Source: a virus (Duplodnaviria > Heunggongvirae > Uroviricota > Caudoviricetes). From it: 5,671 nt of DNA. Shown here piece by piece: positions 1,446-5,074 of the stretch. A program made the position numbers and the translations under genes. Under the pieces are notes generated by a model, which saw only the letters and a list, made by a program, of their open reading frames with translations, was not told where the DNA came from and did no database searches. The first letter of the stretch is position 1; every line of letters starts with the position of its first letter. The DNA is taken from the IMG/VR virus record IMGVR_UViG_2648501186_000005; one strand, 5' to 3'.

Positions 1446-1724
1446 GTGAATATTGATGATATTTCCAGGTGCTCCAGCTTGTTGCAGCGTATTGAGGATG
1501 TTAATGCTGAACGAGCCAGGGCCTTTAGTCGTTTGACAGTTATATTTTCTACCCCTGATCGCCTTTCAGGAAAGAACATTGTTTTATTAAACAGTGATGC
1601 CATCCATAAGGTTTTTGAAGAGTTCATGGCTGCTAATTCAGAATTGCTGGCTCTTGTTGAGGAATACAACGAGATAGCCAGCCGTGTCGGTATGGATGAA
1701 TTCAACGTCATACTTCGTGGATAA
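1446..1724 (+). CDS. Hypothetical protein, 92 aa, predicted soluble and mostly helical (moron-like cargo gene)
   Basis: GTG start at 1446 preceded by AGGAG (1436-1440) with 5-nt spacing; followed by a clean intrinsic terminator. Codons are AT-rich at the third position, unlike the flanking phage genes. No TM segment and no motif I recognise. The antisense ORF 1424-1711 has no such signals. Confidence 0.6.
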   Translation: MNIDDISRCSSLLQRIEDVNAERARAFSRLTVIFSTPDRLSGKNIVLLNSDAIHKVFEEFMAANSELLALVEEYNEIASRVGMDEFNVILRG

Positions 1725-1770: not shown

Positions 1771-2013
1771 GTATCTGAGCCACATCAGGCGCACATCAAA
1801 AACACAGAGCCTTTCAGGGCGGGGAGGGGGCTCTTGCCGTTACACCGTAATGCAAAATAACAGCATACAAAAGGTATCGGTGATGGTTGTTATTGGTGTG
1901 GTTTATTAAAAAAGTGTAAGAAAATTATGAGCGTTGTAGTTGAACAAAATGGTGAAATTGTATGAGCTCGGCATAATGAAAGTTCTGAAGGTATTGCCTG
2001 CACACGCTGTGTA

Positions 2014-2049
2014 AAGGACGGCACGCAACTGCGACTCGTTGCCGTCCTT
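2014..2049 (-). terminator. Possible terminator hairpin for the minus-strand gene 2083-2418
   Basis: 10-bp arms AAGGACGGCA (2014-2023) / TGCCGTCCTT (2040-2049) with a 16-nt loop that itself contains a small CGCA/TGCG stem. On the minus strand the stem is followed by only TTT, so it is weak as a terminator and could instead be a structured RNA or binding site. Confidence 0.3.
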
Positions 2050-2082
2050 GAGGACGCATTTACTCAGGCTAAAGGCGAGTTG

Positions 2083-2418
2083 CTATGCTGGGATGACGGA
2101 AATGGAGTGCCGAATAGCTGCACTTCCGCCTCCTAAATCAATTGTAATATTCCAGTAACCTGAATGCGGTACATGAAGGTGGGCCGGTAATCTCTGAAAA
2201 AAACCGCCACCACCGTGATGATGAAAGCTTCTTGCGTTGCGGTAGTTATTAAAGTTTGTATCTGTCATCAGCAAAATATTGCACTGATGAGAGCAGTCAA
2301 CCACTACCGTATCTCCTGCATTTAAATGCATTCTTTTATGTAAAAACTGCATGTGATTTCCCTGATCAGAGGTAATCAGCCATCCCTCTTTCTCTATGAT
2401 GAGCCAGCGTCCCACCAC
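2083..2418 (-). CDS. Hypothetical His/Gly-rich protein, up to 111 aa from GTG at 2418 (or about 90 aa from the internal ATG near 2355); reverse-oriented cargo gene
   Basis: It is the only ORF of 60 aa or more in the roughly 780-bp interval between the 1748-1770 terminator and the holin gene. It runs opposite to every phage gene in the window. The translation contains SFHHHGGGGFFQRLPAHLHVPH and DLGGGS. The GTG start has no obvious Shine-Dalgarno sequence and the internal ATG has a weak GGGA upstream. Rare codons (AGA, GGA, ATA, TTA) are common. Whether it is coding is uncertain. Confidence 0.4.
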   Translation of the reverse strand: MVGRWLIIEKEGWLITSDQGNHMQFLHKRMHLNAGDTVVVDCSHQCNILLMTDTNFNNYRNARSFHHHGGGGFFQRLPAHLHVPHSGYWNITIDLGGGSAAIRHSISVIPA

Positions 2419-2551
2419 TGGCGGGCTGAATGCTTAACATATCCAGGGTTCAGAAAACGGTAAACCCTGATAAATATCCATATCTTCAAACGTTAATAAA
2501 ATGTCAGTTACGGGGCCGCTGATGGTCCTTTTTATTTACAGGAGAATAAAT

Positions 2552-2941
2552 ATGTCTGAACCCTTATCCGGTTCCAGCACTGCTGTGGCGCTCGGCGGGG
2601 CGACGGTATTCGGGCTGTTTACCGGGACGGATTTCGGGATTGTGTTTGGCGCGTTTGCCGGGGCGTTGTTTGTGGCCACGATGCCACAGGTGATTTCTGT
2701 CTGGCGTGTGGCGGCGCATTTTCTGGTGTCGTTCATTGTTGGCGTGCTGGGGGCGGATGTCCTTGCGTCCTGGCTGGTCGAAAAATTGAATCTCCACAGC
2801 ACATCTCTCGACGCGCTTTGTGCGGTACTGGTATCGGTGGTGTCGGTGAAGATTCTCTCATTCATCCACCAGCAGGATATCGCATCGCTGGTATCCGGGC
2901 TGTTCTCCCGTCTGCGGGGTGGAGGCGGTAATGTTAAGTAA
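2552..2941 (+). CDS. Putative holin / lysis membrane protein, 129 aa, 3-4 predicted Gly-rich TM helices
   Basis: ATG at 2552 with AGGAG (2540-2544) at 7-nt spacing; the ORF-track start at 2501 lacks an SD. Hydrophobic segments are AVALGGATVFGLFTG, GIVFGAFAGALFVATM, AAHFLVSFIVGVLGADVLASWLV and LCAVLVSVVSVKILSFI, with a polar, charged C-terminal tail. It sits immediately upstream of the endolysin, and its stop overlaps the next gene's start (ATGTTAAGTAA). Confidence 0.65.
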   Translation: MSEPLSGSSTAVALGGATVFGLFTGTDFGIVFGAFAGALFVATMPQVISVWRVAAHFLVSFIVGVLGADVLASWLVEKLNLHSTSLDALCAVLVSVVSVKILSFIHQQDIASLVSGLFSRLRGGGGNVK

Positions 2942-3209
2942 CCTTCCCGGATTACTGAATGTGGTGTTAAGCACGGTTATCGTGCTGACGCTCTTTTTTT
3001 ATCGTCGTGGTGAGTCGAGACATAAACCGCTGATGTCGTGGCTGGCCTGGCTGCTGATGCTGCTTTATGCCTTTGCGCCGCTTTGTTATCTGTGTGGTCG
3101 CTTTCCACCCGGTAACTGGCTGGTCGTCCTGATTAACCTGGTGTTCTGCGTGCTGGTGATACGAGCACGCGGGAACGTATCAAAAATCCTTGTATTACGA
3201 AGGCGCTGA
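2931..3209 (+). CDS. Second lysis-cassette membrane protein, 92 aa, about 3 TM helices with an Arg/Lys-rich C-terminus (holin- or antiholin-like)
   Basis: ATG at 2931 with GGAGG (2921-2925) at 5-nt spacing, overlapping the stop of the upstream gene. TM segments are LLNVVLSTVIVLTLFF, LMSWLAWLLMLLYAFAPLCYLCG and WLVVLINLVFCVLVI, and the C-terminus is RARGNVSKILVLRRR. The TGA at 3207-3209 lies 1 nt before the endolysin ATG (TGATATG), indicating translational coupling. Confidence 0.6.
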   Translation: MLSNLPGLLNVVLSTVIVLTLFFYRRGESRHKPLMSWLAWLLMLLYAFAPLCYLCGRFPPGNWLVVLINLVFCVLVIRARGNVSKILVLRRR

Positions 3210-3210
3210 T

Positions 3211-3756
3211 ATGAAGTCGAAAGATGAAATTTTTGACGAAATTCTGGGAAAAGAGGGCGGTTACGTCAATCACCCGGATGATAAAGGTGGTCCGACTAAA
3301 TGGGGCATCACTGAAAAAGTTGCCCGTGCACACGGTTATCAGGGCGATATGCGTGACCTGACGCGTGGGCAGGCGCTGGAAATACTCGAGGCGGACTACT
3401 GGTACGGACCACGATTCGACCAGGTTGAGGACCTGTCTCCGGATATTGCCGCAGAGTTGTGCGATACGGGCGTGAACATGGGGCCAACTGTGGCGTCCAG
3501 AATGCTTCAGCGCTGGCTGAACGTTTTCAACCTGCGCGGGAAACTCTATCCGGATATGGATGCTGATGGACGCATCGGGCCGCGTACTCTTAATGCATTA
3601 CGGGCATATCTGAAAAATCGCAGCAGGGATGGTGAACTGGTACTGGTGAAAGCCCTGAACTGTACGCAGGGCGAGCGTTATCTGGAGCTGGCAGAGAAAC
3701 GCGAGGCCAATGAGTCGTTTGTCTATGGCTGGATGAAAGAGCGCGTGGTGGTTTAA
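3211..3756 (+). CDS. Endolysin: glycoside hydrolase family 108-type muramidase with a C-terminal peptidoglycan-binding domain (181 aa)
   Basis: ATG at 3211 with GAAGG at 7-nt spacing; the TTG at 3190 in the ORF track is not the start. The N-terminus has ILGKEGGYVNHPDDKGGPTKWGIT; the EGGY motif with the catalytic Glu is what I recall for GH108 lysozymes. The C-terminal half resembles the PG-binding region that accompanies GH108 domains. There is no signal peptide or SAR segment, so it would depend on a holin. Confidence 0.85.
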   Translation: MKSKDEIFDEILGKEGGYVNHPDDKGGPTKWGITEKVARAHGYQGDMRDLTRGQALEILEADYWYGPRFDQVEDLSPDIAAELCDTGVNMGPTVASRMLQRWLNVFNLRGKLYPDMDADGRIGPRTLNALRAYLKNRSRDGELVLVKALNCTQGERYLELAEKREANESFVYGWMKERVVV

Positions 3757-4525: not shown

Positions 4526-4735
4526 ATGTTAACTGTAAAAGTCATGTCTCAAAATGGTGGGGAAGAGATCCATTGCGGGCGTAGCATTGGCTATCATCCT
4601 GAGCAGCGGAGTATTGCCGTATCGGGAAAGGATGGGAAAGTCATTCTGAAAGATGGAGATATTGCTTATGTAATGAACCAAAACGCTCAAATAATATCTG
4701 TTTATCGGCCCAATAATAGTCAGAAAAACATTTGA
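4526..4735 (+). CDS. Hypothetical small protein, 69 aa, soluble, probably beta-rich
   Basis: ATG at 4526 with AGGAG (4514-4518) at 7-nt spacing. The translation is MLTVKVMSQNGGEEIHCGRSIGYHPEQRSIAVSGKDGKVILKDGDIAYVMNQNAQIISVYRPN.... No TM segment. I cannot assign a family from memory. Confidence 0.55.
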   Translation: MLTVKVMSQNGGEEIHCGRSIGYHPEQRSIAVSGKDGKVILKDGDIAYVMNQNAQIISVYRPNNSQKNI

Positions 4736-4858: not shown

Positions 4859-5074
4859 ATGGTTTTTAAACACTATTACGTGAACAAAAATGCTCAGAGC
4901 AATGGCGATCATGAGGTGCATGCTGAGGAATGTTCATATCTTCCTGCTGTAGCTAACCGCGATTACCTTGGTTACTATAGTGATTGTTCTTCGGCGGTAA
5001 CAGAGGCAAAGGCCAAAGGATATTCCCGGGTGAATGGTTGCTATTGGTGTGCCAATAAGTGCCACACGTCTTAA
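4859..5074 (+). CDS. Hypothetical small Cys/His-containing protein, 71 aa, possible metal-binding; last gene before cos
   Basis: ATG at 4859 with GGAG (4848-4851) at 7-nt spacing and a terminator about 20 nt downstream. The translation contains HEVHAEEC ... DCSS ... GCYWCANKCH. Its position matches the small ORFs found at the extreme right end of lambda-like genomes, but homology is unverified. Confidence 0.55.
   Translation: MVFKHYYVNKNAQSNGDHEVHAEECSYLPAVANRDYLGYYSDCSSAVTEAKAKGYSRVNGCYWCANKCHTS

Follow-up and report, generated by a model that had tools for sequence, protein, structure and literature searches.

A reverse-oriented DUF1883 gene in the late region of a lambda-like Escherichia coli prophage, a candidate lambdoid moron with a shared promoter and leader module

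We analyzed a 5,671-nucleotide (nt) stretch of viral DNA (IMG/VR record IMGVR_UViG_2648501186_000005), here called the window, which is the late region of an Escherichia coli lambda-like prophage. The window contains a small open reading frame (ORF) that runs against the direction of all neighboring phage genes, and we identified it as a standalone gene for an 89-amino-acid (aa) DUF1883 protein that is under strong purifying selection. On balance, we favor the explanation that window positions 1927 to 2539 are a lambdoid moron, that is, a leftward, lysogen-side cassette whose DUF1883 cargo serves in conflict between phages and other mobile elements. The parts of the cassette are as follows.

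1927-2136, plus strand: convergent partner ORF of family phrog_21096, about 65 aa in homologues, with a 54-nt overlap at the DUF1883 3' end
2014-2049, minus strand: G+C-rich stem-loop followed by UUU at 2013-2011, 34 nt 3' of the DUF1883 stop codon
2083-2352, minus strand: standalone DUF1883 coding sequence, 89 aa (MQFLHKRMHLNAGD...SVIPA), identical to RefSeq WP_001315537.1
2353-2431, minus strand: conserved 5' leader of the DUF1883 mRNA, about 80 nt, without an Rfam match
2436-2469, minus strand: putative promoter module with a -10 hexamer, a weak -35 candidate and an inverted repeat
2512-2539, plus strand: terminator-like hairpin and T run called by the terminator scan, the right boundary of the cassette

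The reverse-oriented frame is a DUF1883 gene under purifying selection

An earlier note on this DNA, made from the letters alone, had described a His/Gly-rich ORF of 111 aa that starts at a GTG and occupies 2083-2418 on the minus strand. The frame, its opposing direction and all of the residues quoted from it are found in the sequence. It was also said to be the only frame of any length in the region; it is the longest between the ORF at 1446-1724 and the holin gene at 2552, but a second, disrupted ORF lies at 1927-2136 on the plus strand. The 111-aa version itself has to be shortened, since the true start is the ATG at 2352. Nearly all of 110 close homologues have a length of about 87 to 90 aa and start at the residue that corresponds to M23, the Pfam domain spans residues 23 to 110 of the 111-aa frame, and PGAP/RefSeq labels 2083-2352 on the minus strand a "DUF1883 domain-containing protein." The ribosome-binding site, which had been judged weak together with the start, is not weak, because the Shine-Dalgarno sequence AGGGA (2363-2359) precedes ATG 2352. 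The 66 nt at 2353-2418 are conserved 5' of unrelated genes, where the frame is not maintained, and the GTG falls within the 5' arm of a leader hairpin (P2, below). The homologue starts, the Pfam span, the RefSeq annotation, the AGGGA and the conservation of the leader therefore mark the 22 "extra" N-terminal codons as noncoding. Nor is the ORF left unexplained by annotation, as had been thought: PGAP names the DUF1883 protein in 40 complete E. coli genomes.

We compared the window gene with copies from related elements. The copy in Klebsiella phage ST13-OXA48phi12.5 differs at 63 nt and 16 aa, with a nonsynonymous divergence (dN) of 0.12, a synonymous divergence (dS) of 1.74 and a dN/dS ratio of about 0.07; the Citrobacter copy differs at 88 nt and 20 aa, with dS saturated. 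The frame was intact in every copy examined, from E. coli to Pseudomonas. The conservation of the frame in related prophages, which the earlier note had proposed as a check, thus comes out clearly in favor of coding. That the ORF is a decayed pseudogene or a noncoding element held open by chance, for which nothing speaks beyond the impression of a weak start and the disrupted state of the adjoining partner ORF, is refuted by the full-length Pfam domain, the intact frame of every homologue, a dN far below dS and a confident fold prediction, and we give it practically no credence. What stands is a genuine coding gene of unusual composition and uncharacterized function.

Family, conserved residues and predicted fold

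The protein matches Pfam PF08980 (DUF1883) with an E value of 3e-26 and 91.6 bits against a gathering cutoff of 26, over profile positions 1 to 87 of 89. Its sequence also matches PDB 2b1y (Atu1913; E value, 2.9e-8). Twelve residues are invariant in 27 diverse Proteobacteria members including the window protein (H5, G13, N25, G49, G50, P56, P62, G65, W67, D72, G74 and G75), and these are 82 to 99% conserved among 247 family members, across which we found a core of G49-G50, P56, P62, W67, D72 and G75 to be invariant. The HHHGGGG motif, which had been taken for a low-complexity oddity, is real, but it is the clade-specific form of a conserved [Y/H][H/Y]GG turn in which invariance is limited to the final two glycines, G49 and G50. 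A two-glycine insertion (positions 47 and 48) is present in 33 of the 247 members, and position 45 is Y in 171. An AlphaFold2 model built from the 27-sequence alignment (mean predicted local distance difference test score, 92.8) has eight strands and one short helix arranged as a small beta-sandwich; 2b1y was not among the best 60 and 50 matches listed in the fold searches.

Atu1913 of Agrobacterium tumefaciens is the solved member of the family. It is also standalone, at about 88 aa, and shares G49-G50, P56, P62, G65, W67, D72 and G74-G75 with the window protein, but it has neither the two-glycine insertion (HHGGGG) nor the C-x-H-x-C turn of the window's enterobacterial subclade. These differences bear on the suggestion that the ORF's composition reflects metal binding. 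As a family property, metal binding fails, because neither the Cys pair nor the HHH run is family-wide: the run is mostly Y-[H/Y], the glycine insertion belongs to one clade, and half of the family, the solved Atu1913 included, has L/A at the Cys positions, which look like buried core positions. Pfam found no match to a metal-binding family. A metal-binding or redox protein that uses H5, C20, H22, C24 and the H45-H47 run is still compatible with the presence of H5 in 202 of the 247 members and of C20, H22 and C24 together, as "CHC," in 102, and with the AlphaFold2 model, which places the cysteines on either side of a tight turn joining strands 2 and 3. C20 and C24 also co-occur, with 120 members having both, 98 having neither (L/A instead) and 29 being mixed, and this could fit a paired role but would be just as consistent with an exchange of residues in the buried core. 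If there is a metal or disulfide site, it could be confined to the C-x-H-x-C subfamily; for the protein as a whole, we regard a metal-binding or redox function as improbable.

A promoter and leader module shared with unrelated cargo genes

The approximately 125 nt 5' of the DUF1883 ATG (window positions ∼2356 to 2482) are about 80% identical to regions upstream of different reverse-oriented small ORFs. These are HK022 gp23 ("srb"), ES18 gp25, HK633 gp65, mEp213 gp72, SPN3UB gp33 and genes of Qin-like and Stx-like E. coli prophages, and they sit in lysis or tail regions. In cargo-sense order, the common elements are an inverted repeat CAGGGT...ACCCTG, a TAnnnT hexamer, UCAGCC, hairpin P2, a variable segment of about 10 nt, hairpin 3, the Shine-Dalgarno sequence and the start codon. 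Their positions in the window, all on the minus strand, are as follows.

2469-2463 and 2450-2444: inverted repeat CAGGGTT/AACCCTG, spanning the -35 and spacer
2464-2459: weak -35 candidate TTTACC
2441-2436: -10 hexamer TATGTT; the TAnnnT positions (T53, A54 and T58 of the alignment) are invariant in 63 sequences
2429-2424: 5' strand UCAGCC
2423-2416 and 2409-2402: arms of hairpin P2, with loop GUGGGA at 2415-2410
2389-2382 and 2376-2368: arms of hairpin 3, with loop GGCUG
2381-2376: 3' strand GGCUGA, which can pair with UCAGCC instead
2363-2359: Shine-Dalgarno sequence AGGGA

A pattern scan of IMG/VR, in which the pattern required GTGGTGGGAYRCTGGC and ATGGCTGAT, added 120 loci. In all, 143 leader instances precede at least 16 unrelated cargo families of 65 to 132 aa, DUF1883 among them, and the cargo representatives tested all match PHROGs of unknown function. 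Further leader coordinates in the collected loci are 1984-2064 in L018, 1984-2062 in L020, 2993-3072 in L016 and 5925-6003 in L007. A covariance model of the leader (R1) gave an 82-bit hit to the window, with a single copy there and one in a 25-kb prophage segment, and a diverged 63-bit copy 5' of the Citrobacter DUF1883 gene that carries a compensatory U-A to C-G change in P2. R1 did not find the leader 5' of the Serratia, Klebsiella, Pseudomonas, Burkholderia, Mesorhizobium or plasmid DUF1883 genes. The leader is not tied to DUF1883. Rfam searches of the whole window (E values up to 1) and of 2300-2560 (E values up to 10) gave no relevant hit, only chance snoRNA matches, and a literal text search for the leader sequence in the literature found nothing.

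Base pairing in the leader favors the cargo-sense strand. The consensus of P2 is CGYCAGUG-GUGGGA-CACUGGCG and that of hairpin 3 is AGAGGGAU-GGCUG-AUUACCUCU. In P2, 99.2% of alignment cells are paired; every one-sided change leaves a G.U pair on the cargo-sense strand, and one further pair has changes on both sides. In hairpin 3, 94.2% are paired and three pairs are changed on both sides. On the cargo-sense strand, all P2 pairs form in 59 of 63 sequences, versus 4 of 63 on the opposite strand, and this bias argues that the cargo mRNA is structured. RNAalifold predicts a helix (P1) between the invariant UCAGCC and GGCUGA, which excludes hairpin 3, and in most sequences the two folds differ by only a few kcal/mol. 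Likewise, a CCUC tract has two possible partners, an upstream AGAGG and the real Shine-Dalgarno sequence. These alternatives hint at a translational switch. RNA thermometers and CsrA-bound leaders are cis-acting 5' leaders that gate translation, and the leader found here may be likened to them in its 5'-terminal stem, the mutually exclusive pairings of GGCUGA, the CCUC alternatives and three GGA motifs; it differs from them in having neither an Rfam family nor thermodynamic support. A leader peptide, MADYL, encoded in the conserved ATGGCTGAT, was considered and rejected: its frame and length are not conserved, and a Shine-Dalgarno-like GGAGG lies just 1 to 3 nt upstream.

The promoter block behaves as a unit separate from the leader. 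No bias toward the sense strand is seen for the inverted repeat (87.0% versus 89.7%), which therefore probably acts at the level of DNA. Of 5,426 complete E. coli genomes, 2,288 contain matches to parts of the 148-nt region 2353-2500. The commonest matching piece is 2436-2481, which adjoins the ATG of the R lysozyme gene, and in about 2,000 E. coli genomes the inverted repeat and -10 block stand next to this ATG with neither leader nor cargo. These R-adjacent blocks resemble remnants left behind by lost morons or, alternatively, an element with a second role in expressing R. An instance of the block lies at 2001-2067 of L021 (H-19B), and in O157-type phages the block also retains the first 20 nt of the leader. 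Phage phiSTEC1575-Stx2k has the same holin pair and promoter block as the window, with homology that stops right after the -10 hexamer; a boundary between modules therefore falls at the predicted transcription start. There (L186, 2167-2542), the block leads into another short leader, together with a reverse-oriented cargo of 90 aa and a forward ORF of 114 aa that converges on it. Because of the homology end and the leaderless R blocks, we treat promoter and leader as separate modules and predict a transcription start at ∼2427 to 2431. We also considered and rejected a LexA box, the motif being CTG-N9-CAG rather than N10 and absent from the window copy, and a sigma-54 promoter, whose "GC" element would fall in a variable segment.

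Boundaries of the cassette and resemblance to morons

The stem-loop at 2014-2049 has a 10-bp stem in both the minimum-energy and the centroid folds, and the same hairpin is conserved 3' of the Citrobacter and Klebsiella phage copies of the gene. It is likely, from sequence and folding, to be a terminator or a 3' stabilizer of the DUF1883 mRNA; the terminator scan made no call at 2014-2049, where the U tract is just three residues. At the other end, the 2512-2539 hairpin is just past the DUF1883 promoter and only about 13 nt short of the holin ribosome-binding site. It lies in the path of late transcription, which has to read through it, presumably by way of Q antitermination. An equivalent A run and G+C hairpin flanks the module in HK022, ES18, HK633, mEp213 and others; in the ES18 record, it carries the annotation of putative terminator. 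The G+C content of the cassette is 0.41 to 0.42 (2101-2550), compared with 0.51 to 0.58 in the holin and endolysin genes, although the whole of 900-2550 is low in G+C.

We use the term moron as defined by Juhala et al. 2000, as summarized in PMC3594210, where prophage expression is demonstrated for HK97 gp15. The replacement of the gene in relatives, one mark of a moron, is seen here: phiSTEC1575-Stx2k carries a different reverse cargo, and many prophages have only the block remnant next to R. For a promoter of its own, the candidate is the invariant TAnnnT hexamer, 10 to 15 nt 5' of the conserved leader, with a recombination boundary immediately after it. Bor of lambda is a classical lambdoid moron. 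In HK97 gene 15, HK022 genes 22/23 and ES18 genes 24/25, as in the window, a single small gene lies in the late operon with its own promoter and terminator (both putative in the window) and a G+C content below that of the adjoining lysis genes. HK022 gp23, ES18 gp25, HK633 gp65 and mEp213 gp72, called morons or possible morons in their records, have the same promoter and leader sequence as the window. The window differs from them in its cargo, since a DUF1883 protein is not described as a moron product in these papers and records.

A convergent partner ORF and paired cassettes

The partner ORF at 1927-2136 is interrupted by an in-frame TGA at 1963-1965, a conserved Trp codon in intact homologues; with this stop read as W, the translation matches phrog_21096 with an E value of 2.8e-26. 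In this prophage, the partner is probably a pseudogene, as judged from that codon. The same TGA is present in all 11 further E. coli copies of this type among the collected loci, and the DNA 3' of the DUF1883 gene is also conserved between E. coli, Citrobacter and the Klebsiella phage. phrog_21096 is intact, convergent and overlapping in Citrobacter, Serratia, two IMG/VR lineages and P. aeruginosa prophages; in the Klebsiella phage, it is interrupted by a stop at another position. A toxin-antitoxin pair was rejected as an interpretation: the genes converge and overlap at their 3' ends, and the partner has nonsense codons in two lineages in which the DUF1883 gene is intact.

This arrangement recurs with other cargos. 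A convergent ORF of at least 40 aa, ending between -130 and +80 nt from the cargo stop, accompanies the cargo in 117 of 137 leader-bearing cassettes (for example, L028 at 1108-1314, L022 at 1140-1298, L018 at 1666-1845, L062 and L158). Partner families follow cargo families, DUF1327/YdfR accompanying two of them, and many partners begin with the same N terminus, MTLEQRVEALE, whereas their C-terminal parts are unrelated and change with the cargo. A relationship between phrog_21096 and DUF1327/YdfR, the partner in other cassettes, was tried; the two are not related. By analogy, the cargo/partner cassettes resemble polymorphic effector/immunity cassettes flanked by conserved recombination arms.

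Distribution of DUF1883 genes and TIR-fused relatives

An 861-bp stretch around the DUF1883 gene is identical in the 40 complete E. coli genomes mentioned above, where the region lies 3' of the Q antiterminator gene and 5' of lambda-type terminase, portal and head genes. The DUF1883 cassette has accessory genes close to Q on one side and the lysis genes on the other. When 1.84 billion representatives were searched with a profile, 1,228 DUF1883 clusters were found, mostly of 85 to 95 aa. Standalone DUF1883 genes are also reversed in P. aeruginosa and Citrobacter lambda-like prophages, between the lysis and terminase genes, and in Klebsiella and Serratia phages, in the tail region. A Burkholderia integrated element has its copy near repressor-like genes, with a HicAB pair nearby, and in a Mesorhizobium element the copy adjoins the integrase gene. 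DUF1883 genes also occur on small plasmids, in Klebsiella beside a WYL regulator. In 5.4-kb Klebsiella ColRNAI plasmids (L012, 1539-3486), a distant DUF1883 gene (39% identity) and three unannotated ORFs form an apparent operon opposite the WYL-domain regulator, a context typical of defense islands.

Among the 150 best family representatives, we scanned the 10 longest proteins and found a C-terminal TIR domain in 4 of them (P0181, P0202, P0212 and P0253), with DUF1883 at the N terminus (Pfam E values, 1e-27 to 1e-34). The TIR_2 domains of these fusions match the PADLOC models ThsB (ThsB1) and the candidate system PDC-S66, and DUF1883-TIR is listed among the predominant bacterial TIR architectures (PMC9153377). 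The homology with the window protein lies in the N-terminal DUF1883 domain. In the window protein, Pfam finds DUF1883 alone, and it does not classify as a Thoeris ThsB; it differs from the fusions in this and in having no PADLOC hit. Because it has no TIR domain, the window protein itself cannot be an NADase effector.

Proposed explanation and alternatives

The modular layout of promoter, leader, cargo and partner and its recurrence across phages lead us to prefer the moron explanation. Transcription would run leftward from the cassette's own promoter (-10 hexamer TATGTT, overlapped by the inverted repeat), pass through the leader, whose hairpins are predicted to form only on the sense RNA, and end at the hairpin at 2014-2049. 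Because the gene opposes Q-dependent late transcription, we infer that it is expressed mainly in the lysogen, and the opposing late transcription would attenuate it in lytic growth. The leader may exert some translational control. The product would be a cytoplasmic protein of 89 aa with the DUF1883 domain only, and phrog_21096 may be a late-oriented cognate modulator of it that has been inactivated in this prophage. More tentatively, and as a possibility that we would not call probable, the shared module may be an undescribed portable expression system, in which an inverted-repeat/-10 promoter and an ∼80-nt leader riboregulator that sets lysogen-specific translation drive swappable cassettes of matched antagonist pairs in phage-phage competition.

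As for biochemical function, the role that we think likeliest, although doubtful in its own right, is a binding module in conflict between phages or mobile elements, for example in excluding or aborting other phages. We prefer it because of the fold, because the same domain heads ThsB-like TIR proteins, and because the gene is strongly associated with accessory slots, on the lysogen side, in phages, plasmids and integrative elements. The other functions that we considered, namely, an anti-defense decoy, a modulator of host physiology, the subfamily metal site discussed above and a lysis regulator, are lesser alternatives.

Several observations weigh against the moron explanation or this conflict role. 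A scan for the sigma-70 consensus called no promoter in the putative promoter module, where there is no canonical match. The folding energy of the window leader is no better than that of shuffles (z, -0.03), covariation cannot test P1 because this helix is invariant, and part of the invariance of the leader stems from ascertainment, because both motifs were required by the scan pattern. The partner is not an indispensable antidote, since it is broken in two lineages with the DUF1883 gene intact. The link to immunity is indirect, because a recognizable TIR domain was present in only 4 of the 10 longest proteins scanned, and searches of NCBIfam and PADLOC with the 111-aa frame that contains the 89-aa protein gave no hit. 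Finally, the only experimentally studied DUF1883 protein that we found, MrpB of Clostridioides difficile, points to cell division, not to defense.

The best-surviving alternative, which we nevertheless consider unlikely, is an anti-defense decoy, in which a TIR-less DUF1883 copy blocks DUF1883-TIR proteins through mixed inactive assemblies or by sequestering the trigger. The position of DUF1883 N-terminal to a ThsB-like TIR in the four fusions agrees with this, as do the match of the window protein to only positions 9 to 97 of the 268-position profile phrog_9211 and the concentration of standalone copies in phages, plasmids and integrative elements. However, the orientation of the gene and its own putative promoter suggest lysogenic rather than early lytic expression, and standalone forms far outnumber TIR fusions across Proteobacteria.

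A modulator of host physiology, which with a small partner perturbs the division or shape of the lysogen, is less probable still. The model is MrpB (CDR20291_1690), a small DUF1883 protein with which MrpA and MinD are recovered in pull-downs; expression of mrpA and mrpB together leads to aberrant septation (bioRxiv 10.1101/2025.08.20.671228). By its description, MrpB is like the window protein in being small and essentially DUF1883 only, and it works only with small MrpA, as a small conserved partner ORF is also present here. Against the parallel, mrpA and mrpB are reported to be coexpressed, whereas the window genes converge and overlap, and the window's partner is probably a pseudogene. MrpB also belongs to another phylum, is chromosomal, lies in the CmrT regulon and has another gene arrangement.

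We regard a role in lysis as very unlikely. The protein would be a cytoplasmic inhibitor of the neighboring endolysin, comparable to the PliG lysozyme inhibitors, which have a similar beta-sandwich, but the E values of the matches are weak, none being better than 0.045, and the fold is a generic one. According to its PDB entries, PliG is a periplasmic protein, whereas the window protein has no hydrophobic N terminus and does not classify as PliG; moreover, elsewhere the gene lies in the tail region, near integrases, on plasmids and beside different endolysin types.

Returning to the moron explanation, the ORF itself is ordinary, as an already annotated member of a DUF family, and the shared promoter/leader module and the convergent partner layout are worth more work. 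The analysis counts standalone DUF1883 as an accessory gene on the lysogen side in temperate phages whose hosts range from Escherichia to Pseudomonas, and since standalone copies are in those phages, the function can be tested in easy E. coli and P. aeruginosa lysogens. Many unrelated morons share one promoter/leader module and have convergent partner genes. If the leader is regulatory, this would explain the expression and exchange of moron genes, and R1 would be a sequence handle for new moron cargos, a class rich in exclusion, defense and virulence functions.

Other features of the window

The remaining features of the window are as follows.

115-927: DNA methyltransferase gene
1446-1724, plus strand: phrog_2873 ORF
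1748-1765: strong terminator adjoining the phrog_2873 ORF
2552-2941 and 2931-3209: two holin genes
3211-3756: GH108 endolysin gene, followed by small plus-strand ORFs
4526-4735, plus strand: small phrog_3909 ORF without a Pfam match
4859-5074, plus strand: small phrog_4298 ORF with a Cys-rich C terminus (CYWCANKCH), without a Pfam match

Scans of the window for tRNA and tmRNA gave nothing relevant. In a matching genome, the gene for the terminase small subunit starts about 70 nt past the end of the window, and we take ∼5480 to 5671 to resemble the region of lambda cos and upstream of Nu1. The phrog_3909 and phrog_4298 ORFs lie between the lysis genes and this packaging region.

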